Part shown: one piece after another, positions 1,085-48,550 of the stretch | Position numbering within the stretch: position 1 is the stretch's first letter | Layout: each line of letters opens with the position of its first letter | DNA from: a virus | Taxonomy: Duplodnaviria; Caudoviricetes | DNA: 64,000 nt | Reading direction: 5' to 3' (one strand) | Virus record (IMG/VR): IMGVR_UViG_3300013936_000011 | Coordinates: 82,601-146,600 of that record | The notes under the pieces: model-generated | Seen by the model: the letters and a program-made list of their open reading frames with translations, nothing else | What the model was told of the DNA's origin: nothing | Databases searched by the model: none | Made by a program: the position numbers and the translations under genes

Positions 1085-2479
1085 ATGCTAACAAAAACTC
1101 AAACCCTTGCCGCTATTCAAAAATCATTAATCAAATACAATGACTTAGTGGCTAATCAAATTGATTCCAAAATAAGCGCTCATAATACTTTAGCTTCTGC
1201 TACTGCAAACGGACATATGTCATCAGGTATGGTGACTAAGTTAAACAGTATAGCAGACGGAGCTGAAGTAAACCAAAACGCTATATCAAAAATTAAAATA
1301 GGCGATGATACTGTAACTGCTGCTGGTAAAGAATCTACTGCTACTTTTAAAGGTAGTAACGGTATATCTGTATCATTTGATAAAGATAATGCTATAGAAA
1401 TATCTGGAGCAGATGCTGTTGGTGCTGCTAATAAAGTTTCGTCAGATTTATCGTCTTACAAAACTACTGTTGCAAACACTTACATGCCTAAGTCAGGTGG
1501 CACTTTTACTGGTATTATCACATTATCTGGCGCTCCTACATCTAACTTACATGCTGCTACTAAAAAGTATGTAGACGATAAAGTTACTGGATTAAGTATA
1601 GGAGATTACATGCCTAAATCAGGTGGAACATTCACAGGAACTGTTACACTATCTGGAGCTCCTACTACAGATTTACAAGCAGCAACTAAGAAATATGTAG
1701 ACGATGCTGCTGCTGCAGCTGCTGCTAAAGTTGTTGATTCGGCTCCTGATACATTAAATACTTTAAACCTATTAGCTGAAGCTTTAGGCGATGACCCTAA
1801 ATTTGCTACTACAATAGCTACTCAAATAGGTACTAAAGTAGATAAAGTAGACGGTAAAGGATTATCAACTAATGACTATACTACAGATGAAAAGAATAAA
1901 TTAAAAGGTATAGCATCTGGTGCAGAAGTCAATCAAAATGCATTTGCTACTATAGCTGTTAAAGTAGGAACAACTACTACTAATGTAGAAGCTGACGCTA
2001 AACAAGATGTATTAACATTAACACAAGGAGATAACGTAACATTAACTCCTAATGCTACTAATGATACAATAACTATATCTGCAAAAGATACTACATATCC
2101 TGAAGCAACTACAAGCGCACACGGTTTAATGAGTACTGGTGATAAAGACAAATTAAATAAAATAGCTGCAGGTGCAGAAGTTAACCAAAACGCATTTTCA
2201 ACTGTTAAGGTAGGAAATACTAGCATAGCTTCTGGTGGTAAAACAGCTACATTAACATTGGCAGCTGGTTCTAATGTTACTTTGACTCCAGATGCAACTG
2301 GTAAAAAAGTAACAATAGCTGCTACAGACACTACTTATCCTGAAGCCTCACAATCAGCTCATGGTCTAATGAGTGCAAGTGATAAAACTAAATTAGACAG
2401 TATAGTAGCTGAAGCAGATGTTTCTGATGAAGAAATAACTTCTATGATAGCTAATGTTCAAACTGCTATAAATGCATAA
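1085..2479 (+). CDS. Fibre shaft protein with MLTKxQT N-terminus
   Basis: Fibre repeats YMPKSGGTFTG..LSGAPT..L.AATKKYVD x2, APDTLNTL..LAEALGDDPKF, KVDKVDGKGLSTNDYT, GAEVNQNAF x3, HGLMS..DK.KL; RBS AAGGAG. Confidence 0.85.
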   Translation: MLTKTQTLAAIQKSLIKYNDLVANQIDSKISAHNTLASATANGHMSSGMVTKLNSIADGAEVNQNAISKIKIGDDTVTAAGKESTATFKGSNGISVSFDKDNAIEISGADAVGAANKVSSDLSSYKTTVANTYMPKSGGTFTGIITLSGAPTSNLHAATKKYVDDKVTGLSIGDYMPKSGGTFTGTVTLSGAPTTDLQAATKKYVDDAAAAAAAKVVDSAPDTLNTLNLLAEALGDDPKFATTIATQIGTKVDKVDGKGLSTNDYTTDEKNKLKGIASGAEVNQNAFATIAVKVGTTTTNVEADAKQDVLTLTQGDNVTLTPNATNDTITISAKDTTYPEATTSAHGLMSTGDKDKLNKIAAGAEVNQNAFSTVKVGNTSIASGGKTATLTLAAGSNVTLTPDATGKKVTIAATDTTYPEASQSAHGLMSASDKTKLDSIVAEADVSDEEITSMIANVQTAINA

Positions 2480-2499
2480 TAGAAAATAGAATAAATAGA

Positions 2500-2541
2500 A
2501 TATAGGCACAAAAATTTTTATATTCTTGTGCCTATATTTTT
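2500..2541 (+). terminator. Intrinsic terminator
   Basis: ATATAGGCACAA / TTGTGCCTATAT stem followed by a T run. Confidence 0.75.
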
Positions 2542-2589
2542 AATAAAAATAATATATTAATTATTATAATGAAAGGAGATAACGATTGA

Positions 2590-4296
2590 ATGCTTACTAA
2601 AACTCAAACAATGAATGCTATTCAAAAATCGTTAATAGCATATAAAACGAATGTGTTAGATAATTTATATACTAATCAAAATGCATTCTCTAATGTAAAG
2701 GTTGGCAATACTACTATTGCTGCTGATTCAGCTACTGATACATTAACATTAACTGCTGGAAATAATATAACTTTGACTCCTAATGCAACTGATGATAGTG
2801 TTTCTATAGCTGCTAAGGATACTACTTATACAACTAGTTCTCCTATATCACTATCTGGAACTACTATCTCTCACGCTACATCTGGAGCATCAGCTGGTAG
2901 TTATGGAGATAGTACTAATCAAACTCCTGCTTATGGAGCAACATTTAAAGTGCCATATTTAACAATAAATAATACTGGACATGTAACAGGTATATCTGAA
3001 CATACAGTAAAAATACCTGCTTCAAATAATACAGATACTAAAATGAATGTAACTCTTAACACTACTACTAAGGCTTATCTTGTAGGTGTTTCTACAACTC
3101 CTACTACAACAGCTAAAGCTTTAACTGGTATAGCAGATACAGGCGTTTATCTTGATACTACTGCTGGTAGTTTAACAGCAACTACTTTCAATGGAGCTCT
3201 TAGCGGTAATGCTACTAGTGCAGATAAAGTTAATAATCAATTAAATATTGTATTAAAAGCAATACAAGGAGGAGCAAGAACATCATATGATGGATCTTCT
3301 GTTCAAACAGTTCTTATAAATCCATCAAGTATAGGCGCAGCATTTGAAAGTCATACACATAGCCAATATGTAAACCCAAATTCATATGGCTATATATTTA
3401 TAGGTGATGATGAAAACATTAGTGCTACTGGCACAGATGATGTAATAGCTTTTAAACCTGGAGATGGTATAAATATCAGTTTTGGGACTTCAGATGTTGC
3501 AACATCTTCAGTATTAATTGCTAATGCTGGTGTTAGAAGTATATCTTCAGGTAGTACTAATGGTACTATATCAGTTAATACAGGCGGTACAACAGCAGAT
3601 GTAGCAGTAAAAGGATTAGGAACTGCAGCATATACAGCATCAACAGCTTATGCATCTTCAAGCCATACACATAAATATGCAGGTTCATCATCAGCAGGTG
3701 GTACTGCAACAGAAGCTGCTAAGACAACTGGTACACTTACTATACAAGGTAATGGTATAAGTATTAATACATTTAATGGTTCTGCAAATAAAACAGTAAA
3801 TATTACACCAGCTAATATAGGTGCTGCTACTAGCAGTCATACCCATAGTGGATATGCATCTTCTACTCATGCTCATGGACTACTTAACAGTGATTTTACG
3901 AAAGAAGTAAATGGTTCTACTGGAGGATGGGAATTAATAAATAGCACTAATACTGGTTATTTATTAACATCACTAAGAGGTGGTAATTCTGTTCCAGATT
4001 GGTTTAACTCACCATATGGTTCAGGTATCATATTTGGTGGTTCTGATACAAAGGGTGTATTGTCAATGTCTTATACTTCACCTTCAATAACATTTGCAGG
4101 CGGTGCATCATCTCCTTCTTGGAATTTAAAAATAACTGGTTCAAACAATAAAACATATAATCTTAATGATTATGCAACAAACGATGTAATCTTAACTCTA
4201 CAAGGTTATGTAAGCACTTTACAAAGCGATGTAAGTACTTTAAAAACTCAAATGGGAGATGTAGAAAGTATATTACAAGAAATTAACGGAGAATAG
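2590..4296 (+). CDS. Fibre protein with MLTKxQT N-terminus
   Basis: Thr/Ser/Gly-rich; NQNAFS repeat shared with the upstream gene; several SHTH motifs; C-terminal coiled coil ending GDVESILQEINGE. Confidence 0.85.
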   Translation: MLTKTQTMNAIQKSLIAYKTNVLDNLYTNQNAFSNVKVGNTTIAADSATDTLTLTAGNNITLTPNATDDSVSIAAKDTTYTTSSPISLSGTTISHATSGASAGSYGDSTNQTPAYGATFKVPYLTINNTGHVTGISEHTVKIPASNNTDTKMNVTLNTTTKAYLVGVSTTPTTTAKALTGIADTGVYLDTTAGSLTATTFNGALSGNATSADKVNNQLNIVLKAIQGGARTSYDGSSVQTVLINPSSIGAAFESHTHSQYVNPNSYGYIFIGDDENISATGTDDVIAFKPGDGINISFGTSDVATSSVLIANAGVRSISSGSTNGTISVNTGGTTADVAVKGLGTAAYTASTAYASSSHTHKYAGSSSAGGTATEAAKTTGTLTIQGNGISINTFNGSANKTVNITPANIGAATSSHTHSGYASSTHAHGLLNSDFTKEVNGSTGGWELINSTNTGYLLTSLRGGNSVPDWFNSPYGSGIIFGGSDTKGVLSMSYTSPSITFAGGASSPSWNLKITGSNNKTYNLNDYATNDVILTLQGYVSTLQSDVSTLKTQMGDVESILQEINGE

Positions 4297-4310
4297 GAAA
4301 GGGTGATAAA

Positions 4311-5456
4311 ATGGCAATATCAGATGAATTAGATTTAACGTTACAAACAAAAGAAGGTCTTAAAGGAGTTATAGAAGATAACGGTCAGACTGCTCCTACC
4401 AAGTTCTCGCAATATCCTGCAGTACTTGATAATATAATAGATAATATGAGAAGCCAATTAAAAATAGCGGATTTTATAATTATCAATGATGATACAACTC
4501 TAGCATCATTAAATAGTTTCTTTGAATTTTTACCTTCTGTTCCAGCAGGTTCTACAACTACTACACAAGCTACGGCTGAAGTAACAACATCAAACTTAAA
4601 CGTAAGAGCTTCTGGTTCTTCTAGTGGTAGTTATGTAGGACTATTGGTTAAAGGAGATGTTGTTAATGTATATGGCACAGCATCTTCAGGATGGTATAAA
4701 ATAAATCAATGGCGTAGTAGCTCTACTGGTGCATTAACAAATCATGGAAGTAGTTATGCTTATATATCTAACAGTTCATCTTATGTAACATATTATCCTT
4801 CTACTACAATATCTAATAAGAAACAAATAGATATAAGTAGTACAGATGGTACTTCTGTACAACAAAAATGTAATTACGTATTAGCTGAAACTAAAGGCTG
4901 GGAAGTATTATTTGACGAAACTTATAAACCAGGAACAGGTTCTTCTGGAGCTTCAACTACAACAGAAAGAACTACTGATTATTCATTTAATAACTGCTAT
5001 ACAGATAACTATTCTTCAAGCAGTTATGGTAGTAAAGTTGCTACAAATACTTCAACAGTAAGACAAGGTTATTATTCTGGATACTATTATTATAAAGGTA
5101 ATTTCAGATTTACAAGTTCTAGACTTTCTGAAATTAAGAGTGTCTTAAATAATTCAACTGTAAAATCTGTTCAAATATATGTACAAAGAGCAAATACTAC
5201 ACATGGTACGTCTGGCTCAGCTACATTAAAACTATATGCATGTAACAGTTCAGGTTCATATTCTGATGTTTTAGTAGATGGCTCAAGTACATTAGCTAGA
5301 GGCGGAGGCAAATGGATAACATTAAGTAGTGATGTAGTTAATGGATTCAAGACTGGTAAATATGATCACTTCAAAGCATATTATCCTTCTACTAGTTTAT
5401 CATATTATATAGTATTTGCATTAAATGCTAAATTGAGAATAACTTATACAGCATAA
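4311..5456 (+). CDS. Putative fibre tip/receptor-binding protein with SH3b domain
   Basis: TSNLNVRASGS...LVKGDVVNVYG...GWYKI matches the SH3b signature; C-terminal Tyr/Ser-rich beta domain ending LRITY. Confidence 0.7.
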   Translation: MAISDELDLTLQTKEGLKGVIEDNGQTAPTKFSQYPAVLDNIIDNMRSQLKIADFIIINDDTTLASLNSFFEFLPSVPAGSTTTTQATAEVTTSNLNVRASGSSSGSYVGLLVKGDVVNVYGTASSGWYKINQWRSSSTGALTNHGSSYAYISNSSSYVTYYPSTTISNKKQIDISSTDGTSVQQKCNYVLAETKGWEVLFDETYKPGTGSSGASTTTERTTDYSFNNCYTDNYSSSSYGSKVATNTSTVRQGYYSGYYYYKGNFRFTSSRLSEIKSVLNNSTVKSVQIYVQRANTTHGTSGSATLKLYACNSSGSYSDVLVDGSSTLARGGGKWITLSSDVVNGFKTGKYDHFKAYYPSTSLSYYIVFALNAKLRITYTA

Positions 5457-5473
5457 TTTTATAAGTATCATAT

Positions 5474-5503
5474 AAAAGGGTCGATCAACAATCGGCCTTT
5501 TTT
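5474..5503 (+). terminator. Intrinsic terminator
   Basis: AAAAGGGTCGAT-caaca-ATCGGCCTTTTTT hairpin with G:U pairs and a T tract. Confidence 0.8.
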
Positions 5504-5506
5504 ATT

Positions 5507-5513
5507 GGTAATA
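5507..5513 (+). promoter_or_regulatory. Putative late promoter motif GGTAATA
   Basis: One of six intergenic RGTAATA copies upstream of structural/lysis operons. Confidence 0.6.
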
Positions 5514-5543
5514 ATATTATAGTTAATGAAAGGGTGTGTTATT

Positions 5544-6077
5544 ATGGCCGATATTAATCAAAAAGATTGGGATAAAATAAAGGACGTTATAGTATCACCT
5601 TATTATAATGACGGATATGGTCGTTATGATTTAAGCCTTGAAGAAGTAGCTCGTGGCCTACAAGCTATGGGTTATGATCTAAATGGAGGCGGTGGTAGTA
5701 CTAATCCAGATGAATCTCAAGCAGATACATCTAATTATAAATTAGAATTATTAAGCACTAATGGAACACAGATTACAGACGAAGGCTTTTACACTACATT
5801 ATATGTTAAGTTATATAAAGACAATAAAGATGTTACAGATATAACGAGTGAATCTAATTTTAAATGGACCAGATTTTCTGGTAATTCTGAAACTGATAAA
5901 TTAAAAGATGCTGCATGGAATTTACGTTATGCAGCAGGTGCAAAAGAAATATTAGTTACCAGAGAAGACGTAAACAGAAGAGCATTATTCCAATGTCAAT
6001 ATGTTCAATACGAAGATGAAGTAACATGGGTAAAAAATGCATACTCTACTTACGTTGATTCAATAACAAAAAATTAA
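5544..6077 (+). CDS. Tail/baseplate minor protein
   Basis: Start moved to ATG 5544 after the AAAGGGTG RBS; contains a LSTNG...TTL...Y...DVT...FKWTR.S...D..WN domain, also seen at the N-terminus of 7675 and in 6092. Confidence 0.7.
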   Translation: MADINQKDWDKIKDVIVSPYYNDGYGRYDLSLEEVARGLQAMGYDLNGGGGSTNPDESQADTSNYKLELLSTNGTQITDEGFYTTLYVKLYKDNKDVTDITSESNFKWTRFSGNSETDKLKDAAWNLRYAAGAKEILVTREDVNRRALFQCQYVQYEDEVTWVKNAYSTYVDSITKN

Positions 6078-6091
6078 AAGAGGTGATATAA

Positions 6092-7657: not shown

Positions 7658-7674
7658 TATAGCGAGGTGATAAT

Positions 7675-10600: not shown

Positions 10601-12627
10601 AGGGCAATGTTGATTCTGGTATCGTAGGTATGAGATTTGGTAAAAAAACATTCGAACTTAAACTTGACGGTACTTTTAAATTTGGTAATGATTCCAGATA
10701 CATATCTTTTGATGACGAAGGATTAAAAGTATCTGCTATCTATGGTGAAGAAATTAAAGCATATAATCTTGATGTATATAAACGTAGTAAAGATACTGAA
10801 GGCAATTATGTATATGATAACAAGAATAAGACTTTTAGTGTAGATGATGAAGGTAACATATCTATAAAGGCTAATAGCTTTAGTTTAACTCCAACGACTG
10901 CAAATCAACAACAATTAATCAATGGTTTAACAAATAGTTCTACAAATAGCGAAACCAATGGTTTATGGATTAATGATGGCAAATTGAATATCAATGCTGA
11001 TAATATAACTACTGGTAAAATGAGTGCTGGACGAGTAAATATAACTGACGGTTCATTCTTGATAGGAACAGAAGATAAACCTGTATTTTGGATTAAGAAT
11101 AATGATGAAGTAATAATCAAACCTAGTCAATTCTTATTAACAGATATAAATGGCAATACAGTTATAGAAGTAAATGAAAATAAGAAAGTAACTATGAATG
11201 CTAGCTATATAAATACTGGTTCTATAAATGGTAAATTTATAGAAGCTGAAACTATCGATGTTTCACATCTTGTAGCTGGTACAGGTGCAACTAATATTAA
11301 CAATATATTGGATCAAGGCGGTATAGCATGGTCTAGTAAATTTGGTAGTGAAACTTCAGCTACTGCAATAACAGATTGTAAATTAGGATACGATGTAGCT
11401 CAAAACATAACAGATAAATATTCTGTAGGAGGTATTGTTAATGCCGATGAGGTAAACGAAACAGCTTATATAGAAATAGATTTAGGAAATACATATAAAA
11501 TATCTTCTTCAACTATTTATTTTGATACTAGTGCTGCTCCTGATAGTGGTGTTACATATTACTATAAAATTAAATATTCATATAACGGAACTGATTGGTA
11601 TTACATTGTTGGTAATGAATATAGTTCATATCAATCTGGATGGGCTACAGGCATTTTACCTAATCAGATAGCTCCATTGACTAATAATTTTAATGCAGAA
11701 TCTGGTGTTGAATATATAAATGCTCGTTATATTAGATTATGCCTTGGCAATCTTGGAACTGATCCTATTAACATGAAAGTAATATCATGGCATTTATATA
11801 GTTCTGGTAGATCTACGATAATAGACAGCTCTGGTATTACTACAGGTGCAATCAAAGCCGAACAAATTGCAGCAAATAGTATTAGTACGGAACATATCGA
11901 TATACTTGATGATTCATTTACTTTTACAGATAATGATGGAAACACTGTATTCGCTATAACAGAAGTTAATGATAATACTACTGTTGAAATAAGACCAGAT
12001 ACGTTTATATTAAAAGACGATAGCGGTAATGTTGGTGTAAGTCTTAAAGATGGTAAACTAGATATTGATGCTAGCAATATTACAACTGGTAAGTTAAAAG
12101 CTGATTATATACAAGGCGGTACTTTAGACACTTCGGTTATAAAATCAGGCTCTATATCTGGAAATCAGATAGATGCTAGAGAATTAAAAGTAATCAGAGA
12201 TGGCGAAAATGGACAAGTAACTACTTTACAAATAACTAATAATGGTGCTATTTATGCCAATTATGAAGACTTTATGTTAGTATCCAGTGATGGAACTAAA
12301 AACGTAGGAGACTATACAGATGCTCTACGCGATGACATAGAAGAATATATTCGATTTAGTGGAGACACTATCACTCTTGGTAAAGAAATTATGGAAGATG
12401 GTACAGCTAATAAGTTTAAAGCTAAATTAAGTTCTACATCACTTGATTTCATGGAAAATGATGTAGCTGTAGCATCTATATCAAACAACAGAATGTTTAT
12501 TACTAATGCACAAGTTAAGAATGTTTTAACTATTGGTAATTCAGCATCTGGAAATAATGTCGGTGGGTTCTTCGATTGGACTCTAAGACAAAATGGACAT
12601 TTATCATTGAAATGGAGGGCTAATTAA
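7675..12627 (+). CDS. Large tail host-specificity/central fibre protein
   Basis: P..P.DGQLWVDTS motif; CBM-like domain from NLIRNS to WQPHPDD; coiled-coil region; repeated (I)NA..I.TG.I beta-helix motifs; discoidin-like domain (YIEIDLG...YSYNGTDW...ARYIRL); C-terminal YIRF...ITLG...VASISNNRMFITNA...NGHLSLKW. Confidence 0.8.
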   Translation: MISYKALTRASITLQLIDDIGLYDSEIFSSNGLLLQPYDRSTTLTGIIYKNNRDITSEIKDIRWTMWSPDASNYATDEEWNENHKGSNVIEVTSDEIDSKCVIQFEAYKKNKMNEDELIACSHITLVDINDLIAVTEKPDNPYDGQLWVDTSTDPATIWVYKNGKWNRVGTVDAIVKNLIRNSAFTTFTNKYYDVVGSTVLSYTPSVFQRGSYNWLKLQSDVAIDAERGVSYTVFDEDIKTNSDYSFQMLAYATSATSAVDNRINVRICSIDESNTETALYEYKDLEITTDVCKFFTSFKTLPNTKTIKIYITGRNGSVYDFNISHLALYNTANDYPWQPHPDDASLILDQETVFNALTNNGTVKGLYSIRDPKTGQLQIYFNANYIQSGTIKGDRIDARNLTVIRDDGIKTLEITDKGEVNLIVNSFKLSSTGQTIEDFILDSIDLNDSGQLKYLLKQIQKESSEADAIYTELYNTDELKDATYSKETATDLDLSMYTNEASSGQQRARRRSIITPGSDTGEEKLPSFVLGQSKLGYAVLGETGSGNLKTILYNVKRSYNGDTDRLIAKIEERIAEIEKGGKAKTQAIAIYSNDEIIEESTLEDLYTVYIDKYSLLKRVFVICQDAVGIVRLTVVTDRWSKLEVETNQILSEVGEVKKYYAGPEGEEPTLLEAIGSIASEKITPEAIVNIVQNGVVDVDKDPQKVSEIISQTVINQTASDIDMSAENLKQGLKSSFDLSINGIKLGTKDADGNTTLIDMHGDTVQIAAPQIDLSGYVTFSKFGDEFNKNFTTSFDKSFNDSFGKKFDDSFTINLNKAFKGELPDITTINGGLITTNTILGNALVTNTITTDKLAADVLTANNIKTGNLQGTNSKSYFDLDNGTFRLANADKTFLTFDGSKLSFGDVAASDLGILVDDVTGVLPSWVKDWNGRTVEIDNENIVGVRAFLGHKEGTELTGIGLGVDLGTNTGEEEFKGNVDSGIVGMRFGKKTFELKLDGTFKFGNDSRYISFDDEGLKVSAIYGEEIKAYNLDVYKRSKDTEGNYVYDNKNKTFSVDDEGNISIKANSFSLTPTTANQQQLINGLTNSSTNSETNGLWINDGKLNINADNITTGKMSAGRVNITDGSFLIGTEDKPVFWIKNNDEVIIKPSQFLLTDINGNTVIEVNENKKVTMNASYINTGSINGKFIEAETIDVSHLVAGTGATNINNILDQGGIAWSSKFGSETSATAITDCKLGYDVAQNITDKYSVGGIVNADEVNETAYIEIDLGNTYKISSSTIYFDTSAAPDSGVTYYYKIKYSYNGTDWYYIVGNEYSSYQSGWATGILPNQIAPLTNNFNAESGVEYINARYIRLCLGNLGTDPINMKVISWHLYSSGRSTIIDSSGITTGAIKAEQIAANSISTEHIDILDDSFTFTDNDGNTVFAITEVNDNTTVEIRPDTFILKDDSGNVGVSLKDGKLDIDASNITTGKLKADYIQGGTLDTSVIKSGSISGNQIDARELKVIRDGENGQVTTLQITNNGAIYANYEDFMLVSSDGTKNVGDYTDALRDDIEEYIRFSGDTITLGKEIMEDGTANKFKAKLSSTSLDFMENDVAVASISNNRMFITNAQVKNVLTIGNSASGNNVGGFFDWTLRQNGHLSLKWRAN

Positions 12628-15032
12628 TGAGTACATCATGCAAATTGACGGTAACAGAAACTAGCGTCGACCAAGCGAATAATAAGAGTACTATATCAGT
12701 AAAGCTTACTGCAACAACTACTGGACAATCGCACAATAATTATACATCAGGATCCTATTTCCCTAAAGGCACTATCACTGTAAATGGTACTTCGTATAGC
12801 ATAGGACGTACATTGCCATATAACTCTACTGTTACTTTATATAATAAATCTCACACTATAACACATAACTCTGACGGGAGTAAGAGCGTAACTGTTAAAT
12901 ATAGTTTCAATACACATATATATGATGGAACATTAACAGGCAGTAAGACTTTAAAACTAACAGATATATCGATAGATAAAAAATCGACACCAACTGCTAG
13001 CTCAAGTAGTGTTTATATTGGCAGTTCTATAACTATAGATATGAATCCATATATGAGTTCATACACTCATTCAATAAGCTATAAATTTAATGGTGGCACT
13101 ACAAATATGACTAGTGGACTTAGTGCAACAAGTGGAATTAAGGACTCATGTACATTCACACCTCCATCAAGTTTATTGAATTATATGGACCCGGATTCTA
13201 CATCAGCTAATGCAGTGTTTACTGTAAATACTTATAAATCTAGTGGAACATTAATTGGTTCAAGTACATTTACGGTTGCAGTTAAAACATCTGCTACTTC
13301 TTATCCTCCTGTTATGGGAAGCATTTCTGCTTCTGTATATAATAATGGTTCACCGTTTAGTAATATATATGTTAAAAATTATAATGGCGTTAAATTATCT
13401 TTTAGCGCCACTGCTCAGCAAAATGCTGGTATTGTTTCTTATAAAATAACAGGTGGTGGAGTCAATACCACAGTTACTAGCAATACATATACAATACCTA
13501 AATTAATATCATCAGGTAGCATAACTTATACTGTTACTGCTACTGATACTAGAGGTGCTACTTGTTCTGGTAGCGTTAAAATAACAGTTAATACATATTC
13601 TCCTCCTTCTATAAATAACGTAACTACTGTACGTTGCGACCAAAATGGCACTCCGGCGGATGACGGAAAATATATTAAAGCAGATGTATCTGCTACGTAC
13701 AGCAATATAGGAAACAATCAAAGTGGTTCTATAATAGTCAAAATACAATATGCATCAAACGGTGGAAGCTATAATTCAGGAAATAATTTAACTGTTAGTA
13801 AAAGTTCTGGTACTGCTATGGCTACAGGAATAATTGGCGGAAGTCTTAGCGATGGATCTTATAATGTTTTATACACTATAACTGATGCATATAATAAACA
13901 AACAACTTATGAAGATATACTAAGTACTATGTTCTATGTTCTAGATATAAATTCTGGCGGAACAAGTGTTGGTATAGGTGCAGCAGCTAGTGATGCTAAT
14001 CACGTATTAACTATAGGGATGGAGCAGATAGTTTTCCCTAATACTACTTCTTTAGATTTAGGTGTTAGTGGACTCGATTTTGCTTCTGATACATTCCAAA
14101 TAACAAGTAAAGACACTACATTAAATAACACTTCTTTAGCATTAAACAATACTTCTTTAACGTTAAAGAATAAAAACACAACTTTAAATAGCACTGTCAG
14201 CATGACATTAGATGCAACTACTTTGAATTTAGATTCTACTGCTATGAATATAAATTCAACTAGTGTAACTTCAAGTGCTGAATTTTTAGAATATACGAAA
14301 TCTTTGACTATAACTTCAAGCGGTATAACTATAAATAATAATGGCATTAATGATATACAGTTTAATTCTGATTATGTACGTATAAAAGAAGGCGCAACGT
14401 TAGCTGCAGTTGGTTGGGCAAGTAGCGGATCTACTTCAACTAATAGTTTTAATTTAGGACGTATATATTGCGAAAGCGGAATTGATATGCCAAATAATAT
14501 AGCTTACAGATGTATCAATAGTACAGATGCAATACTGCCTTGTATGTTTATAAACGCTTCTAATTATTGTTTCTTAAGTCATAACGATTTAACTGGTACA
14601 GTTTTGCGTGGCAAGACTGTTAAGTTATCAAGTGCTTCAGGTACTACCGTAACTTCAGACGAAAGGGTTAAGAAGGATTTCAAAACACTTGAAGGATATG
14701 AAGATTTCTTTATGAGTTTAAAGCCTATAGCATATAAATATCTGACAGGAACTAGTGACAGATATCATGTAGGATTTAAAGCACAAGACGTTAAAAGTTC
14801 ATTAGAAAATAATAAGCTTACTACTCAAGACTTTGGAGGTTATGTTGAGACAGATCCTGATACAGATTTTTATATGGAAACTTTAGGATATGATCCATTT
14901 GATGGAGGTAAAATGTGCGCATTATCTTATGAAGAGTTTGTAGGTTTGGCTGTATATATGATTCAAAAACAACATGACCAAATTGAAGAATTAAAAGATC
15001 GTGTTGCAGTATTAGAAAGAGGTGATAACTAA
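12627..15032 (+). CDS. Tail spike/minor tail protein (DUF859-like) with C-terminal peptidase S74 intramolecular chaperone
   Basis: N-terminal SVDQANNKS...ITHNSDGSKS; ATDTRG, YSPPSI, RCDQNGT motifs; C-terminal SDERVKKD...LKPIAYKY...HVGFKAQDV...LSYEEF plus coiled coil. Confidence 0.85.
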   Translation: MSTSCKLTVTETSVDQANNKSTISVKLTATTTGQSHNNYTSGSYFPKGTITVNGTSYSIGRTLPYNSTVTLYNKSHTITHNSDGSKSVTVKYSFNTHIYDGTLTGSKTLKLTDISIDKKSTPTASSSSVYIGSSITIDMNPYMSSYTHSISYKFNGGTTNMTSGLSATSGIKDSCTFTPPSSLLNYMDPDSTSANAVFTVNTYKSSGTLIGSSTFTVAVKTSATSYPPVMGSISASVYNNGSPFSNIYVKNYNGVKLSFSATAQQNAGIVSYKITGGGVNTTVTSNTYTIPKLISSGSITYTVTATDTRGATCSGSVKITVNTYSPPSINNVTTVRCDQNGTPADDGKYIKADVSATYSNIGNNQSGSIIVKIQYASNGGSYNSGNNLTVSKSSGTAMATGIIGGSLSDGSYNVLYTITDAYNKQTTYEDILSTMFYVLDINSGGTSVGIGAAASDANHVLTIGMEQIVFPNTTSLDLGVSGLDFASDTFQITSKDTTLNNTSLALNNTSLTLKNKNTTLNSTVSMTLDATTLNLDSTAMNINSTSVTSSAEFLEYTKSLTITSSGITINNNGINDIQFNSDYVRIKEGATLAAVGWASSGSTSTNSFNLGRIYCESGIDMPNNIAYRCINSTDAILPCMFINASNYCFLSHNDLTGTVLRGKTVKLSSASGTTVTSDERVKKDFKTLEGYEDFFMSLKPIAYKYLTGTSDRYHVGFKAQDVKSSLENNKLTTQDFGGYVETDPDTDFYMETLGYDPFDGGKMCALSYEEFVGLAVYMIQKQHDQIEELKDRVAVLERGDN

Positions 15033-29700: not shown

Positions 29701-32700
29701 ACAGATGTTGCAGGAGATATAGTAAGATATGAAGTTTACCTTAAACCAGAACATAAAATATATACAGTAAATGATGAGATAAGATACTTTAATAATCCTG
29801 ACCCAGATGCTGATGAAGCTATACGTTGTGATCTATTAGGAATAACTAATAATACTTTCTTAGATTTTGACATGACAGGATATGAAGTTGAAGGCGAAAC
29901 ATATACAGCTTTCATAAGAGCTGTTGATGGATGGCACAACAGTTACTACTATGATAGTAATAAACTTGTATTTACTAAGAAAGAATACAGCAGACCTAAG
30001 ACTAAAATAAATATAGAAAATGCTCATGGTGAATTTGGTAAAGCTCAACTTATTTATACTCATCCAGATTCTAAGTTAACTGGTGAAGATGCAACTGACA
30101 GAGGTTCATGTGATGGTAAGGTTTGGGTATATGCTTACATTGATGGTTATGAATCTAGACCAATTAATATATCTAGTTTATTTGGAGATGTCGTAACTAA
30201 AGAAGATAAAGACGACGACGTTGATTACATAATCATGACTCCAGACCAAACTATAGATAAGACAATAGATTTCCGTGAAATAGTAAGACTTGGTAAAGAA
30301 CAAAACATAGCTATATCACAATACAGAAGCAATTACATAACATACTATGCAATAGCTAAAGATGTTAATCCTGGTATTTATTCTATAGATACAGCTCCTG
30401 ATGATATAGGTTCTTATGAACGTGAAGAATACTTGTCTCAAACAATAAATGGTATTCAATACTTCTATACTCATTACTTTAATGAAGAACCTCCACAACC
30501 TGTACCTTATACTGGTTCTCCATTAACTGAGGCAGATAGAGCAGTATTTGGATTTAACTATACTATAATACAAATAGAACCTATTAGTGACCCTGACAGA
30601 GATCCTATGCATTACTACATCTATATAGATACTCCTAATAGTATGGGTGATGCAGAGCATACAACTAAAGTATATAAAGAAGTGGCTAATGTTAATACAA
30701 GAGATGTAGTCATAGAAACTACAGATCGTGTTTATAATAGATGTTACAGAATAGATCCTATCTATGAAAAAACTGGTGATGAAGTAAATGTAAACAATAT
30801 ATTATATTATAACGTTTATAAACTTACTGGAGATGATTTTAATAGCAGTAGTTCTTGGACATATATAAGTAAGTCTGATACTCCTTCATTAAAGATAGAC
30901 TATATAGCTGACAATTATCCTTTATCTAAATGGGTAGACGAAGCTAATGGTTTAAGTCAAAGTGATGGAGCTGGATTATTTACTTACTGGGTAGAATCTA
31001 GAGATGATTATGAAAATAGTTATTACAGATCATCTGATTCTATGATTGTAGATAGAATACAACATAAGAAACCTAATAAACCTGAGCTTACAGTTACACC
31101 AGCGCATGGAGAACGAGGAGAAATAAGTATTAAATATAAACATCCAGAACAATTAGATTCGTTAATCTATCTATACGCTTACTTTACAGATAGTAAAGGT
31201 GTTAAGCATACTGGTTTAGTAGATGTTATAGATGTGAGCTATACAGATGAAGAAAAGAATGACTATTATCTTAATAGAGTTCCTATAGTAAAAGAAGTTG
31301 AATATACTGTAGAATTTACTAAAGAAGTGCATGATCATACTAAGTTCTTTGAACGTTCTACTGCTATAAGTTATTATGCAGTGGCTGCAGATAAGATAGT
31401 AGGATACATATCTGAGTTAAAAGATAATACTAGTGCTTCAATTGATGATTTTAATCCAGATAGTATAGCAGAAGCTGATAGACGTGATGGACATTACTTC
31501 AATGAAGAACCTGAAATATCTAGTCCATACTATTTATTTACAGAAAAGATAGCAGCAGATGAAGGTGATTCTATATTTGAAAAAGGTGTATTAGATAATT
31601 TAGTAGTAGAAGAAACTCCATTCGATACTATGACTTTATTATGGGAAATGCCAGTAACAGCTACAGATAATAAAGATATAGACGGAGATATTATAGATTA
31701 TTACTTCTACATGTATTGTCCTTCTACAACTCTAGAAACTAAAAATAAAGATGAAGAAAAACCTGACCATGTATTCTATGGTAATTATACTGAATCAGAT
31801 TCATACGGCGGTAACGATATTATGCAACCTGATAATGGAGATGCAGGTGACTTAGATGAATTTAGTGATAATGGACAAGAACCTGAATATGTAAAAGGCG
31901 TAGTTGAATATAACTATTTAGTAACTGTTCCTCATGAAAAAATAATAGGTCAAACAGTATCAGATAAGAACGGTAAGACTTGGTTCTATTATACTTTCGA
32001 CTTATCACTATATCAAGAAGACGGAAATGTTACTATATGGATAGAAACAAGAGATAGATATGAAAACAGCTATTACAGAAGCGGTTATTCATTAACATTA
32101 AAGAGAGGTCATAAAGCTAAACCTGTACAAACAGCATATCCTAATAACGTTAACAACGTAGTATATTGTAAGCGTCCTAGAATCTTAATAGAATTAGCAG
32201 AAGATGATTTAAGACAAGAAGTAATTGTTACTTGGAAGAATGTTGAATATTCTAATAAGGATTATAATCAACGTCAATTCTTCTCTAGTATTCCTAAAGT
32301 AACAAAAGGAGATCCAGGTTTAAATACAACAGGTGAAAATGATTGCTACGTTATATTTAGACCACCTGTAGCTTATACAGAAATAAGTGGCAGCAAAGTT
32401 CAATATAGTATTAAAGTTAATAATACTTGTACAACTTCTGAGTCTCGTTACTTCTCATACATGTATTATAAATTTGGCTATAATTTAACCGAAGATACAT
32501 TCATTCCTATTAAAGCTGTTCATGTTAATGAATTCAGAAAAGCTGCTCAACGTGTTATAGATGCTTATGGTAAGAGTTATGAGGACCCTGGCGAATATCA
32601 ATTAAAAGACAGAGCAGTAGTTATTAAACAAGTAGTAGATAATGAAGACTATAATGAAATAGCTAAACCATTAATGAATCTTAACAACTTCTTAAACACA

Positions 32701-38028: not shown

Positions 38029-38043
38029 TAGGAGGTGATATGT

Positions 38044-39558
38044 ATGGGAATGAAAAAGATAAGCGAAAACGTTGTAGCTTTAGGAAGATCACTTACACTT
38101 ATTAATGATCAAGTCAGAGATAATACGAATATACAAAAAGGTGCATTAAAGACTCAAACTACAGGTTCTACTTATACAGTCAATATACCTGTAGAAGAAA
38201 ATAATTCATATAAAGATGTAACTGTAAGTTATACTAGCGGATTAAAATATAAAGCTGATACTAACAAATACGTATCATTTGATGCTAAAGGTATACTAGA
38301 ACCATTAAGTATTGATGCTGAAGTAATGTTAGAAACTCATTCTATATATGCACGTTGTTTAAATACAGGATGCGTTATAACTGATAAGCTTGCTGAACAA
38401 GCAGTAACAACATCTAAAATAAAAGACGCTAACGTTACTACTGAAAAGATAAAAGACTTAGCAGTGACTACTCCTAAATTAGCTGAAGGCGCAGTAGTTA
38501 ACAGTAAGATAGCTGATAAGACTATAGTAGCATATGAAAAAATAGTTCCTAGCACTGTTACTACAGAATTATTAGTTGACTATTCAGTAACTAGTAGAAA
38601 AATCGCAGACGGTGCTGTTATTAACGAGAAACTTGGAACTCATGCTGTTACTACTGAGAAGATAGCTGATAAAACAATAACTAATACTAATATAGCAGAT
38701 AAGACTATACTTAGCTCTAATATAGCTGACGGAGCAATAGAAACAATAAACCTTAAAGACCTATCTGTTAGCACAGCTAAATTACAAGATGGTTCAGTTA
38801 CAACTCCTAAACTTGCAGATGGAGCAGTTACTTCAGAAAAGATAGCAGACAATACTATTACAGCAAACAATATAAAACAAGGTGCAATCAATAGTGAATG
38901 TATAGAAAATGAAACTATAATTACAGAAGATCTTCATGACGAATGCGTCACTCTAGAAAAACTTGCACCAGATGTATTTGGTAAAGTTAATGACGCAGTT
39001 ATATATGAAAACAGTAATCCTGATTATAAAATAAATTATGGCACAGCTCATAATCATATGGTACAAATAAAAAGAACTGTAGATGGCGAAAAACAAGATA
39101 CAGATTTATATGTATCAGGTCATATATATGCAGCTGGTAATATAGAAGGTGCTAGAGTTTATAATATGGCATATGCAGATATAGCCGAAGGTTATATACC
39201 AGGTGAAGAATTAGAACCAGGCGATATAGTAGAACTAAGAGAAAATGGTAAGGTTTATAAAGCTGGTATGCATAATGGATTTGCAGCAGCAACTGTCGGA
39301 GTAATAACTGACGAATATGCAGCATGTTATGGGGCAACAGAAGCTGAAATACTAAGCGGTGAAAAAGTTGCTGTAGCTTTAGTCGGTAAAGTACATGTTA
39401 AAGTAGATGGTTCTGCTTATATAGGTTCTGCAATTAGCGTATCAGATGTACCAGGAGCAGGTACTTTATATGAAGGAGGAATTGTTATAGGTAGAGCATT
39501 AGAAACTTCAAAGCAACGTGGAGTTCATAAAGTATTATGTCTAGTTCGACCTTGTTAA
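38044..39558 (+). CDS. Tail fibre with 10-residue AVT.EKIADG repeats and a C-terminal chaperone-like domain
   Basis: About 20 decapeptide repeats; C-terminal YADIAEGY...PGDIV...VGVIT...VALVGKVHVKV...IGRALE resembles the peptidase G2-type autocleaving chaperone; RBS GGAGGTG supports ATG 38044. Confidence 0.75.
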   Translation: MGMKKISENVVALGRSLTLINDQVRDNTNIQKGALKTQTTGSTYTVNIPVEENNSYKDVTVSYTSGLKYKADTNKYVSFDAKGILEPLSIDAEVMLETHSIYARCLNTGCVITDKLAEQAVTTSKIKDANVTTEKIKDLAVTTPKLAEGAVVNSKIADKTIVAYEKIVPSTVTTELLVDYSVTSRKIADGAVINEKLGTHAVTTEKIADKTITNTNIADKTILSSNIADGAIETINLKDLSVSTAKLQDGSVTTPKLADGAVTSEKIADNTITANNIKQGAINSECIENETIITEDLHDECVTLEKLAPDVFGKVNDAVIYENSNPDYKINYGTAHNHMVQIKRTVDGEKQDTDLYVSGHIYAAGNIEGARVYNMAYADIAEGYIPGEELEPGDIVELRENGKVYKAGMHNGFAAATVGVITDEYAACYGATEAEILSGEKVAVALVGKVHVKVDGSAYIGSAISVSDVPGAGTLYEGGIVIGRALETSKQRGVHKVLCLVRPC

Positions 39559-39575
39559 TATAGATACAGAATTAT

Positions 39576-39602: not shown

Positions 39603-39609
39603 GGTAATA
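39603..39609 (+). promoter_or_regulatory. Putative late promoter motif GGTAATA
   Basis: Abuts the terminator and precedes the AAGGAGG RBS. Confidence 0.6.
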
Positions 39610-39634
39610 AGAAAATAGATAAGGAGGTATGCAT

Positions 39635-43709: not shown

Positions 43710-43723
43710 AAAGGAGGACTCAT

Positions 43724-43960: not shown

Positions 43961-43962
43961 TA

Positions 43963-45075
43963 GTGATAAATAAAATGAGTTCACAAGAACTAAATCAAAT
44001 ATTTGAAGATGTAAAGAAAAAACAAGATGAAGCTTTAATACTTATTCAGAACATGAAAAATGATATAAATAAAAAGCTTATGATAAAAAATTATGCCGAC
44101 GAGTTTATAGACCAGAAACTAGATAGTATTAATGCTGGTGTAGTATCTAATCAAAACATAGTTAATTTCACATCTAATGAATTAGCTGGTATATATAATA
44201 AATATGGTTGCATGGTTCATCCTAAATTCAAGAATGATCCTGTCGATATATTTAATTTAAAGGTAGCATCAGGTACTATATCAAACATAATGTTTAAACA
44301 GTCTATGACTTGTAAGGTAAATGATATTGAAAATGAGGAATATATCAATTTATTAAAATCTGATTCTTTAATAGATAAAGAAATAGTATTTGATGAATTG
44401 AATATAGATACAATAACTATATCATACGAGCTTGATAATTCATTAGCTCTTGGTACTTCAAGATTTAATGTTATAGAAATAGATCCATATATAAAAGGAG
44501 CATATAGCCTTACTTCTTTAGAATGTTATGCACTTGACACTACAGGTAATTTATCTAGTACACCAATTACTACAGTTCAAGGATTTGACAATATTGGTAA
44601 AACTAGAATCATACTTGACAAGAAAGTAAAATTCTCTAAAGTCGTTATGACTTTCAAAATCAATTTCTCTACAGAAGTAAATAACATATCTGTGTATCCT
44701 TTCGGTTTAAAACATATATACTTTATGGAAGCTGATTTCCTAGCAGACACTTCTTTTGTAATAGTTCCTATAATAGCTGATGACTTTATTGAATATATCT
44801 ACAATGATATAGTTTTATATACTGCTAATGGTAAGTTTAAAACTACATGTGATATGTACGACATAGAACTTTATACTAATTATTCTAATAATACATTAAC
44901 TGGTAGAGTTTATACTTCATCAGAAGCTTCTATTAATAGAATATCTAAGAACACTAATAAATTGTATGCTAAAATTCCTCTTGTTAAGAAGAACGTCGCG
45001 AACGACGATAAAGAATACTTAAGCTTAAACGGTATTGAATTTAACTTCATAGTTAATGAAGAAATTATCTTATAA
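43963..45075 (+). CDS. Putative structural protein
   Basis: 370 aa, GTG start with GAGGTG RBS; coiled coil plus beta domain. Confidence 0.6.
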   Translation: MINKMSSQELNQIFEDVKKKQDEALILIQNMKNDINKKLMIKNYADEFIDQKLDSINAGVVSNQNIVNFTSNELAGIYNKYGCMVHPKFKNDPVDIFNLKVASGTISNIMFKQSMTCKVNDIENEEYINLLKSDSLIDKEIVFDELNIDTITISYELDNSLALGTSRFNVIEIDPYIKGAYSLTSLECYALDTTGNLSSTPITTVQGFDNIGKTRIILDKKVKFSKVVMTFKINFSTEVNNISVYPFGLKHIYFMEADFLADTSFVIVPIIADDFIEYIYNDIVLYTANGKFKTTCDMYDIELYTNYSNNTLTGRVYTSSEASINRISKNTNKLYAKIPLVKKNVANDDKEYLSLNGIEFNFIVNEEIIL

Positions 45076-45086
45076 GGAGTGATACA

Positions 45087-46358
45087 ATGCTTACAAAGAA
45101 ACAGACTTTAGATACAATTAAAAAGACATTAAGCTTATATAAAACCAATGTCTTAGATAATGTTTATGCAAAAACAGAATATGTAGATTCTAAAGCTTTG
45201 CCAATAATACTTATAAATGACGAGAATAAAACTGGTTCTGCTTTATTCCCATTATTACCTGAACATAATTTAGTATTCATTGCAGGAGATGCTCAAATAC
45301 CAGATAGTAATGGAGACATTACAACAATATACGGTCTATGTTATTCAGATTTACAAGATGATGGAAGTAAATTAATTACTGAATATAGAACTGGTAAAGC
45401 TGCTAAAATAAATTCTAACGGCATATTAGAATCTTTTGAGTATATTGATACGAACGTAAAATCAATCGTTTCTAATATAAAAGGCGGAGAAACAAATAAA
45501 TTATTAGCTAAAAATAGTGATACGGATTTTGATTATAAATGGGTCGATATGCCTTCAATCGAAACATTGCCTGTTAATTATGATAAAAATTGTGCTACAA
45601 ATGTTGCTGAATTAAAAGCTCATACTATTTATGTAGCACCAAAAGATGCTGATTTTTTATATTTAGGATACGAAAAACTTAGCGGCTCTTTTAGTGGATT
45701 TTTTCTTTCAATCAATCCTCATGGTAAATTTATTTATACTGGTTATAAAGATGATAGTAGAATTGAAGTTATGATAGAAGGAACTTGTTATACAGCTTAT
45801 TTTAAAACTGATACTGAAGACGCTCATACTGAAAAAACAGTATATTATTTAACTAAAAATAATAATATAGGTTTTACTCCAACATTGGATTATGAACCTG
45901 CTACTAAAAAGTACGTAGATAATGCTAAAGCTTCAATAACTGTTCCTACTAAGACTTCAGAGCTAACTAATGATAGTAATTTCTTGACTGAACATCAATC
46001 ATTAGATGGATACGCTAAAACTACAGATCTTCATACTCATGACAATAAAGAAGTATTAGATACAATAACAGCAGAAAAAGTAGCACAATGGGATAGCAAT
46101 ACTGGTTCAAGTGGTGGCTCTACATCTGGCATAAATATAGTAACTATATCTCAATCTGATTATGACGCATTAGAAACAAAAGATGCTAATACATTATATC
46201 TAATAACAACTACTAATGCAGGTGATATAGATACTTCAAGTAATGATATAACATTAAGTGATGATTTACCAGCAGGTACTTATACACTTAAATATGAAGA
46301 TGAAAACAATCAACCATTAGATGGTTTCGATGAAATAACAACATTGGAGGTGCAATAA
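45087..46358 (+). CDS. Fibre protein with MLTKxQT N-terminus
   Basis: GG.T..LLAKNS.TDFDYKW, PATKKYVD, VPTKTSELTNDS.F, HTHDNK.VLD and ISQSDYDALETKDANTLYLI fibre motifs. Confidence 0.8.
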   Translation: MLTKKQTLDTIKKTLSLYKTNVLDNVYAKTEYVDSKALPIILINDENKTGSALFPLLPEHNLVFIAGDAQIPDSNGDITTIYGLCYSDLQDDGSKLITEYRTGKAAKINSNGILESFEYIDTNVKSIVSNIKGGETNKLLAKNSDTDFDYKWVDMPSIETLPVNYDKNCATNVAELKAHTIYVAPKDADFLYLGYEKLSGSFSGFFLSINPHGKFIYTGYKDDSRIEVMIEGTCYTAYFKTDTEDAHTEKTVYYLTKNNNIGFTPTLDYEPATKKYVDNAKASITVPTKTSELTNDSNFLTEHQSLDGYAKTTDLHTHDNKEVLDTITAEKVAQWDSNTGSSGGSTSGINIVTISQSDYDALETKDANTLYLITTTNAGDIDTSSNDITLSDDLPAGTYTLKYEDENNQPLDGFDEITTLEVQ

Positions 46359-47797
46359 TGGCTACTTATTCAGACTTAATAAAACAAAACGTAGCTCCTT
46401 ATACAGCCAAAAAAATAGGAGTTTATGATTCAAACGGAGAAAGGGTCGGAGAAATATCATTAGGTGATTTTAAACCAGACTACGGGGAAAGATTATATAG
46501 ATTTGGTATATTATCTGACGTACATAACCAACAAGACCAAACTTCAGAAAGTACAGAAGATTTACAACATGCATTAGATTATTTTAACAACAAACAATCT
46601 GTTAGTTTTACTGTTATATGTGGAGATATATCTCAAAATGGTACAGCTACTGAATTTGCAATATATCAAAATAATGTAAATGCTAAATCTCCTGATACCC
46701 CTGTTTATACTACTACAGGAAATCATGATTGTGGTCAAGGAACTAGTGGATTATCATTAGATACATGGAAACAATATACTGGTAACCACGATAGATGTTT
46801 TGAAATAACACAAGGTACAGATCACTTCTTATTCTTTGGTATGAATAAATGGGACTTCGGAGATTCTGGTACTCCATATGTTACTACAGATATAGATTGG
46901 TTAGAAAGCAAATTACAAGAATATCAAAACGATAGATGTTTTATAATAACACATTTATTTTTCCCAAGTAGAGCTGGTAATTTAAACAGTATTTATCCTA
47001 GTGGTAACTGGCTTGGCGGTTCTCAATTAACTAGAATTCAAGGTTTATGCGATACTTATAAAAATACATACTGGTTTAGTGGTCATAGTCACTGGAAATG
47101 GTATTTACAAAAATATCAATCTAGAGCAAATGTGTATAGAAATAATTGTGGTTGGTGCGTACATATACCAAGTTGTGCAGTTCCTATTGATTCAGATGGT
47201 ACAACTAGAGTAGAAAAACCATTAGAATCAGAAGGGGCAATAATAGATGTTTATGCTGATTATATAGATATAAGAGGTATAAACTTTAAAACAGATAAAT
47301 ATATACCTATAGCTCAATATAGATTATATACAGATATAAATCATGATAGTGGAGGTTCTTCTGGTGGTGGCAGTGGTACTTCTAGTATACCTGATGGTTA
47401 TGTTGCAGCAACAGCAGATAACTTTACAGTAAGAACAGATACAGGTGCTACTACTACTCAATCTGCAGCAACTACTACTGATGATGGTTATATATCTGTA
47501 ACATTTACAGCAGGTTCTCAAAAATTCTGGGTACAAACAAGTAATATGACTTCATCTACTTCTAGAGTAGAAGTATATGTTGAAGATGTTATATACGATC
47601 CTGAACCTTCAACATCTAATAAGATGGGTCTAGGTTTCTACCAAAATGGTGGTTATTACGGAATAGAAACTGGTATAGAACCATATTACGATGCATCTGA
47701 AAATACTGCTGTACAATTTAACTCATCTGGTTCTAAATACAGTGGTACTTATCCAGTAACTATTAAGATGAAGAACTTAGCATTTAAATGTAGCTAG
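46358..47797 (+). CDS. Calcineurin-like metallophosphoesterase, probably fibre-associated
   Basis: Complete motif set SDVH, CGDI, GNHD, TH, SGHSH; Gly/Ser linker and C-terminal beta domain; coupled to the fibre gene. Confidence 0.85.
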   Translation: MATYSDLIKQNVAPYTAKKIGVYDSNGERVGEISLGDFKPDYGERLYRFGILSDVHNQQDQTSESTEDLQHALDYFNNKQSVSFTVICGDISQNGTATEFAIYQNNVNAKSPDTPVYTTTGNHDCGQGTSGLSLDTWKQYTGNHDRCFEITQGTDHFLFFGMNKWDFGDSGTPYVTTDIDWLESKLQEYQNDRCFIITHLFFPSRAGNLNSIYPSGNWLGGSQLTRIQGLCDTYKNTYWFSGHSHWKWYLQKYQSRANVYRNNCGWCVHIPSCAVPIDSDGTTRVEKPLESEGAIIDVYADYIDIRGINFKTDKYIPIAQYRLYTDINHDSGGSSGGGSGTSSIPDGYVAATADNFTVRTDTGATTTQSAATTTDDGYISVTFTAGSQKFWVQTSNMTSSTSRVEVYVEDVIYDPEPSTSNKMGLGFYQNGGYYGIETGIEPYYDASENTAVQFNSSGSKYSGTYPVTIKMKNLAFKCS

Positions 47798-47811
47798 GAG
47801 AGTGATGTTAT

Positions 47812-48288
47812 ATGGCAACAATAACTAAGACAGGTACTGCAACAGCTACACCTACTGCATCTAGTATAAGCTTTAGTGGTACAACACAAAGATCTGGTAC
47901 TATATCATGGACTACTCCTACTTTACCTGACAATGCTACAATATTATCTTGTACATTAACAGGTACAATGACAGGTTCATCATCTTATGGTTCAGTTACT
48001 CTTACAGTTAATGGAACTACTGTTACATCTGGTACAGCATTCAGTATAGATTTAGGTACCAAAGGTACAACAACTTCTGTAACTGCAACTGCAAAAGGTA
48101 GTAGTCGTTGGGGTTCAGGTACTGCTACTTTTAGTAACTTATTATATACAATTGAATATGAATATACCGAAACTGTAAAAGAGAAAAATAAAAAACGCAT
48201 GATAATAAACAATACTAATGTTAAAAAAATGTATTTTGGTGAAAATATTGTATATAAGGTTTATTTGGGAGATATACAAGTATTTTAA
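47812..48288 (+). CDS. Small Thr-rich fibre tip/decoration protein
   Basis: Beta-sandwich domain plus C-terminal VKKMYFG...VYKVYLGD.QVF motif. Confidence 0.65.
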   Translation: MATITKTGTATATPTASSISFSGTTQRSGTISWTTPTLPDNATILSCTLTGTMTGSSSYGSVTLTVNGTTVTSGTAFSIDLGTKGTTTSVTATAKGSSRWGSGTATFSNLLYTIEYEYTETVKEKNKKRMIINNTNVKKMYFGENIVYKVYLGDIQVF

Positions 48289-48307
48289 TATATAAGGGAG
48301 TGATGTA

Positions 48308-48550
48308 ATGCTTACAAAGACACAAACTCTAGACGCAATAAGAAAAGCGCTGATTTCATATAAAACAAATGTATTAGATACTATATATGCTAAAGCTTCA
48401 GACGTGCCTTCAATTGATGGATTAGTTAGTGAGACATCTCTTAATAATAGATTAAGCAATTTATCTGTCGTTACAATGACACAATCCCAATATAATGCAT
48501 TAGAGACAAAAGATTCTAATGTTTTATATCTAATAACTAATGATGAATAG
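48308..48550 (+). CDS. Minimal adaptor protein with MLTKxQT N-terminus
   Basis: 80 aa: MLTKTQT motif, short linker, and TQSQYNALETKDSNVLYLI motif. Confidence 0.75.
   Translation: MLTKTQTLDAIRKALISYKTNVLDTIYAKASDVPSIDGLVSETSLNNRLSNLSVVTMTQSQYNALETKDSNVLYLITNDE

Follow-up and report, generated by a model that had tools for sequence, protein, structure and literature searches.

A shared N-terminal leader as a candidate docking element on exchangeable fibre modules of a gut jumbo phage

Four fibre-type genes in the final 64 kb of a 146.6-kb viral contig (positions 82,601 to 146,600 of IMG/VR record IMGVR_UViG_3300013936_000011; this stretch is the window, to whose numbering coordinates refer unless stated otherwise) open with the same short peptide, MLTKxQT, which heads a leader of about 28 residues, and then continue into different payloads. 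The contig comes from an uncultured jumbo phage of the human gut and spans about 56% of a genome of about 263 kb. The leader is a real motif that is always N-terminal, is under selection at the protein level, behaves as a module and is bounded by naturally split and fused forms of the genes that carry it. Sequence comparison supports an autonomous, swappable module on fibre-type proteins, and as judged from alignments the leader is the minimal conserved part of these proteins. On balance, we consider it probable that the leader serves as an N-terminal docking element, or 'address tag', for fibre modules; binding by the leader, its partner and its stoichiometry are what we infer.

Four genes with one leader

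The four genes, which we refer to as classes A to D, lie on the + strand, as does every relevant open reading frame (ORF) of the window with at least 90 amino acids (aa), and their MLTKxQT N-termini were verified where a sequence-only reading of this DNA had placed them. Class A (1085–2479, 464 aa) consists of the leader (codons 1–28, 1085–1168), a fibre shaft built of repeat modules and a conserved acidic C-terminal helix. In class B (2590–4296, 568 aa) the leader is fused directly to an NQNAF..TLTPNA..AKDTTY repeat that precedes the fibre body, and the repeats of the two classes are 66% identical over 56 aa. Class C (45087–46358, 423 aa) carries the leader, a removable N-domain of about 130 aa, a variable cassette, a Phage_tail_C motif and a C-terminal module, whereas the class D mini-protein (48308–48550, 80 aa) is made of the leader, a linker of about 20 aa and a Phage_tail_C motif. 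A separate Shine-Dalgarno sequence, AAGGAG or AGGGAG, precedes the start codon of each gene by 7–9 nucleotides (nt). The A/B and C/D loci had been put about 43 kb apart; we measure 42.5 kb.

All four proteins begin with the pattern MLTKxQT..I.K.L..Y. When the first 28 residues are aligned, without gaps, 11 positions are invariant (M1 L2 T3 K4 Q6 T7 I11 K13 L15 Y18 V22). Residues 1–7 are the same in classes A, B and D, and class C deviates only at residue 5 (K for T). Pairwise identity among the four paralogues is 12–20 of 28 residues, with classes B, C and D sharing 18–20, and falls to 1–4 of 28 in the next 28 residues, the likeness breaking off sharply after about residue 28–33. A six-frame motif scan of the whole contig found exactly four copies, and a hidden Markov model of the leader, run on 99 ORFs, gave the four genes 54–65 bits and the runner-up 3.5 bits, a match far beyond chance. 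Among the paralogues, 35–75% of identical leader residues are encoded by different codons, with third positions varying most. The conservation therefore acts at the protein level, as had been claimed, and the paralogues are old genes in which selection has been on the peptide.

The sequence-only reading had also assigned each leader a different cargo, namely an extender, an SH3b tip, a phosphoesterase with a small beta domain and an Ig-like protein. The payloads of the MLTK proteins do differ, but the SH3b, phosphoesterase and Ig-like domains sit in separate downstream ORFs (4311–5456, 46358–47797 and 48562–50088), and three of the four proposed cargoes are thus not covalent payloads. The description of the 1085 protein as an extender stands, since it is conserved at either end and variable in the length of its shaft.

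A leader family in gut jumbo phages

Searches with a leader profile returned 106 homologues from a set of 5.8 billion proteins, all from gut jumbo-phage contigs of up to 273 kb, and 33 representative clusters among 1.84 billion proteins, in 32 of which the match starts at residue 1. The pooled searches gave 130 proteins with 40 distinct leaders, and the family is confined to gut jumbo phages of about 260 kb. M1, L2, K4 and L15 are invariant throughout these leaders, T3 and I11 are each kept in 39 and Y18 in 38. The payloads behind them are anywhere between 76 and 998 aa long; YadA-head repeats, Phage_fiber_2, a pectate-lyase fold and Phage_tail_C all occur in them, and the fibre-type domains PF05658, PF03406 and PF12708 are found among the relatives. 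A short conserved peptide at the extreme N-terminus followed by a divergent remainder is the pattern that marks the docking peptides of branched receptor-binding protein systems in the model of Latka et al. A tblastn search of 50,697 phage records gave patchy matches to fibre repeats only and no relative among cultured phages.

IMG/VR holds only four close relatives, and in all of them classes A, B and C are present and class D is absent. Full 263-kb relatives were sampled as two 20-kb loci each. In 263-kb ENA contigs ('human gut metagenome'), scanning turned up the A/B locus and the C locus and nothing else; they too are separated by 42.5 kb, and class C lies within its own conserved five-gene block. 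Orthologues of each window gene keep the leader residues specific to their class and are more alike than the paralogues are, which suggests separate fixed positions for the classes.

The leader and its payloads are exchanged independently

Comparison of cassette content in the relatives revealed heavy exchange behind the leader and a leader that is itself swappable between fibre-type proteins. In orthologues of class A, about 54 residues at the N-terminus and about 25 at the C-terminus are conserved, and the shaft between them varies by whole repeat units (80–469 aa, the smallest protein being 80 aa in total). In class C the leader is kept while everything behind it is exchanged; P0103, for example, has the leader and lacks the N-domain of about 130 aa. 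A series of mini-proteins of 76–93 aa (P0112, P0118, P0128, P0130, P0110 and the window's 48308 protein) contain the leader and a C-terminal connector only. In P0112 this connector is the class A acidic tail, and in the 80-aa window protein it is Phage_tail_C. Conversely, one payload can follow different leaders: residues 97–414 of P0122, behind an MLTK-type leader, share 62% identity with a 347-aa protein whose leader is different.

A search with the class C N-domain located it inside proteins with other leader types and revealed no fusion to a socket. These proteins (P0131–P0141) start MAKDF.., MRNKD.., MSKVNL.. or M(A/T)TNNAV.. and carry the domain internally. The exception is P0140, in which a diverged MLTK-like leader (MLNKDS..) is followed directly by the class C N-domain at the N-terminus. 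Nearly all of the P0131–P0141 proteins end in a ..EV..ML..LGGDYS tail.

Split and fused genes mark the boundaries of the leader more directly. Some relatives encode class C in a single gene of 612–667 aa and others in a pair of genes (197 + 527 aa), and alignment of the two forms shows that on splitting the first piece gains an acidic C-terminal tail and the second a basic leader, exactly at a K-x-Y-V-D joint. At two junctions in one relative (L007:2497–2513 and L007:4065–4080) the codons of the conserved L-G-G-D-Y tail also provide the Shine-Dalgarno sequence for the overlapping gene that follows, whose likely start lies 8 nt further on (GTG 2511 and TTG 4078, respectively). Such a dual-coded junction reads as a device implying translational coupling of consecutive fibre segments.

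The reverse event is seen at L027:2146–4623, where one 825-aa gene stands in place of classes A and B between the conserved 142-aa and 381-aa genes. It joins residues 1–338 of A to residues ~43–568 of B, without the A tail and without the B leader. The crossover lies in the repeat that the two proteins share, and the longest exact A/B match there is 20–21 nt. With so little exact identity, we judged a collapse of the assembly to be an unlikely origin of the fusion. When natural fusions of an upstream protein to the class A body were sought, only the A–B fusion P0013 was found.

A predicted helix and its putative acidic partner

AlphaFold2 (AF2) modelled the 80-aa class D protein with one helix at residues 4–29 (predicted local distance difference test score, pLDDT, 56–65) and a Phage_tail_C hairpin at residues 53–77 (pLDDT ~80). 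Hydrophobic residues at leader positions 8, 11, 15, 18 and 22 (L8 I11 L15 Y18 V22), read from the alignment, fit a heptad, and the leader helix may form a trimeric coiled coil.

Acidic C-terminal tails are the candidate counterpart. A regular expression for such tails matched three of the 99 ORFs, each time at the C-terminus (the 1085, 54932 and 58392 proteins). Net charge is −3 to −5 in the tails and +1 to +5 in the leaders (+1 to +3 in the MLTK leaders), a contrast that is modest beside the background standard deviation of about 3. The class A tail (2411–2476, + strand; ..EADVSDEEITSMIANVQTAINA, net charge −5) is a candidate socket for the leader of the gene downstream, and that of the 58392 fibre protein (60072–60137, + strand; ..IVADSEIQAIIADLAK) is a candidate 'orphan' socket, since a terminator (60158–60185) follows it and then no partner gene. 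Within the fibre genes at 53048–60140, several consecutive pairs consist of an acidic tail and then an amphipathic leader on the next gene. The leaders there are of several other types (MAKH.., MSNK.., MADF.., MAKK..). These genes form a separate fibre operon, placed after the primase and helicase genes and headed by the 53048–53527 gene, whose 159-aa product is paralogous (27% identity, 2e-13) to a 165-aa protein about 104 kb upstream (31750–32247 in genome numbering).

Taken together, we favour a docking arrangement set in the very large fibre apparatus of a contractile-tailed jumbo phage. The leader would comprise an invariant cap, M-L-T-K-x-Q-T, and then an amphipathic heptad helix of about 25 residues, and its role would be to hold fibre modules, each encoded separately and free to be exchanged, at attachment sites of one class. 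Its most likely partner would be an acidic helix at the C-terminus of a fibre segment lying more proximally, for example the tail of the 1085 protein. In that scheme class A would act as the proximal extender and take up the class B leader with its acidic tail, end to end as in T4, and classes C and D would initiate or bridge additional branches. For A and B we prefer this serial arrangement to a parallel one.

Several observations weigh against this scheme. The leader helix is predicted with only moderate confidence from single-sequence input, and the class C model has a mean pLDDT of 32. The second half of the leader (positions 15–25) resembles an internal shaft motif of the 1085 protein, so part of its conservation may be purely structural. 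The upstream neighbours of classes A, C and D lack the typical acidic tail. The 'extender' leaders resemble MLTK positions 8–22, with a one-residue offset, weakly and not in a statistically firm way. The 825-aa fusion was seen once only, at about 10x coverage, and is as compatible with a parallel arrangement of A and B as with a serial one. Finally, Pfam and PHROGs searches of 29 neighbouring structural proteins detected no branching domain like that of T4 gp10, although such domains usually need HHpred or structure comparison to be recognised.

A wider version of the docking arrangement is conceivable, though we think it unlikely to hold as a whole. Short terminal helices would form a typed plug-and-socket code, with several types of leader and of C-terminal connector, and modules could be fused, split, re-addressed or bridged by the 76–93-aa adaptors. 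Several MLTK modules would share one socket type, and competition or the ratio of expression, and not a fixed architecture, would determine the tip composition of the virion.

Payload domains and gene neighbourhood

The MLTK proteins combine fibre-type repeats and domains with a position in the tail and baseplate module, as is seen for tail fibre and receptor-binding proteins. The class A protein matches tail-fibre PHROGs (best 3e-20). The 26-residue Phage_tail_C motif (PF24243) is found at residues 52–77 of class D (48461–48538; 47.9 bits, 8e-13), and the same family matches residues 350–374 of class C (46134–46208; 41 bits, 1e-10), against a gathering cutoff of 23.7. Sequence searches of the PDB matched a tail collar fibre (9d93) and FibU of 80alpha (6v8i), both through generic fibre repeats, and gave no match to the leader itself. 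The 998-aa P0125 has the C-terminal module of class C (Phage_tail_C plus about 50 aa, closing with ..FDEITTLEVQ) at its own end.

The baseplate wedge genes, one gp25-like and one Baseplate_J-like, precede the start of the window; after them come five unannotated structural genes, and then class A. Directly upstream of class A in all relatives is the gene for a 142-aa beta-sandwich protein (639–1067, + strand), DUF11-like by its Atlas structure. The 110-nt gap between classes A and B contains a long, AT-rich, terminator-like hairpin (2499–2538, strand undefined) with a 17-bp stem and then a T-run, which may act as a terminator or attenuator setting the A:B expression ratio. Sigma-70 promoter scans gave scores no better than those of shuffled sequence. 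Class B is followed by the 381-aa SH3_3-domain protein (4311–5456, + strand; PF08239 at residues 94–155, 6e-8), which is the separate gene behind the supposed SH3b tip.

Further fibre and appendage genes fill the stretch between the two MLTK loci. Among the window's other tail proteins, an 801-aa product (12627–15032) combines DUF859 (7e-30) with a C-terminal Peptidase_S74 intramolecular-chaperone domain, that is, a siphovirus-type tail-tip protein inside a contractile-tail phage. A 507-aa fibre without the MLTK leader (38035–39558) matches phrog_892 (3e-43) and has a weakly Peptidase_G2-like C-terminus.

At the second locus, a conserved 370-aa protein (43963–45075, + strand) lies directly upstream of class C in all relatives. 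Its final 22 aa have a net charge of −4, and an Atlas look-up returned only 'hypothetical viral protein'. The gene after class C encodes a 479-aa calcineurin-like metallophosphoesterase (46358–47797, + strand; PF00149, 3e-14). It is a separate gene whose start overlaps the class C stop, and the class C C-terminal module may be the docking site of this enzyme. A 158-aa beta protein follows (47812–48288, + strand), homologous to a 155-aa gene product at the same place in relatives (59/143 identical). The block of appendage genes ends, after class D, with the separate 508-aa protein whose C-terminus is Ig-like (48562–50088, + strand; weak matches only).

Alternative explanations

The sequence-only reading had proposed that the four leaders compete for one socket, which would produce stochastic mixtures of tips on each virion and a broad host range without invertases or diversity-generating retroelements. 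The near-identity of residues 1–7 in all four leaders and the 18–20 residues common to B, C and D would suit a common socket. So would the excess of leaders over unpartnered acidic tails in the contig (four as against those of the 1085 and 58392 proteins), and a copy number that varies between three in close relatives and four here would be tolerable for a competing add-on. However, the class-specific residues that are stable among orthologues fit fixed, separate positions at least as well, and class C resides in its own conserved block 42.5 kb away. Known multi-fibre phages have separate sites and a fixed stoichiometry (PMC6872550, PMC10253068). In addition, as the contig covers little more than half of the genome, other sockets may lie outside it. 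We regard competition for a single socket as unlikely.

The leader might instead be no more than an N-terminal trimerisation or folding cap, a coiled-coil nucleus on proteins that attach to the virion through other parts. Fibre proteins commonly need terminal trimerisation elements, and the heptad a/d pattern, the modelled helix and the resemblance of positions 15–25 to the internal shaft motif of the 1085 protein would all be expected of one. The strictest conservation, however, falls on the first seven residues, which are not part of the heptad, and in the mini-proteins, which are leader and connector and nothing more, there is no fibre that would have to fold. Other leaders are found with the same payload, and in the split and fused forms the leader is gained or lost together with the upstream tail. 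This makes a mere cap a rather improbable account.

Short, invariant, strictly N-terminal peptides on otherwise unrelated proteins also resemble targeting signals, an example being the capsid-targeting sequences of T4 internal proteins, and the leader could be a tag for a shared assembly chaperone or targeting factor that makes no permanent structural contact. The leader has no protease-type cleavage motif behind it and no candidate chaperone gene that varies along with it, its payloads are external fibre domains and the split and fused genes point to a structural joint, all of which render this reading very improbable. Selection on DNA or RNA, with the leader as a homology arm for cassette exchange or a translation signal and the peptide incidental, is extremely unlikely: cassette exchange behind the leader is rampant and other junctions in the system are dual-coded with ribosome-binding sites, but the differing codons and a longest exact A/B leader match of 14 nt indicate selection on the protein.

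Significance and comparison with known systems

Fibres set the host range of gut phages, and knowing the short element by which they attach makes them predictable and exchangeable. This clade offers natural comparisons of the same payload behind different leaders, of covalent with split fibres and of adaptors that are two connectors and nothing else, and it is this set that singles out the leader and the terminal tails as joints in their own right. If the docking arrangement is true, it would supply a compact means of annotating receptor-binding genes in metagenomes of jumbo phages.

The leader is not a new kind of system, as the principle of a conserved N-terminal docking peptide is already known. 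The serial arrangement we prefer recalls the long tail fibre of T4, in which gp34, gp35, gp36 and gp37 are separate segments in gene order, held together by non-covalent end-to-end joints. The T4 chain differs in that its joints are not known to be short, paired, recurring terminal helices and in that no shared leader is known on several alternative distal pieces. Enteric adenoviruses carry long and short fibres with a common N-terminal tail that binds the penton base, giving two tip types per virion. This is a working analogue for the competition model only, in a eukaryotic virus of unrelated fold and sequence.

Multi-branched fibre networks are known from jumbo and large myoviruses, namely from RaK2 and PhiK64-1 (Alcyoneusvirus) and from CBA120 and other Ackermannviridae (PMC10253068, bioRxiv 10.1101/2024.03.21.586117). 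As here, large genomes encode many fibre proteins with conserved N-terminal assembly modules. In those networks the complex is anchored by one protein that bears the rest, and the modules are folded domains of about 100 aa (D1/XD, a beta-sandwich), unlike the present leader. Pfam, PHROGs and PDB sequence searches found no sequence relation to them.

The closer likeness is to the secondary receptor-binding proteins of the Klebsiella phages KP32, KP34, Menlow and PhiK64-1 and of K1-5, K1E and SP6, which have conserved N-terminal docking peptides (PMC6872550, PMC13352976). Such a peptide can be only 7–11 residues long and hangs an additional fibre or spike on the virion (PMC6872550, PMC13352976), and the interaction has been validated experimentally (PMC13352976). 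In those phages, as in this family, the extreme N-terminal peptide is conserved while the remainder is swapped by horizontal transfer. There, a T4-gp10-like branching domain of a primary fibre is the partner, and different positions have peptides of their own. In the present family, a leader of about 28 residues, predicted to be helical, is shared by three or four paralogues per genome, its partner is probably a terminal helix and the searches detected nothing like gp10. If this proves true, a helix-to-helix mode of docking would be added to the gp10-domain/peptide mode of coliphages and Klebsiella phages.

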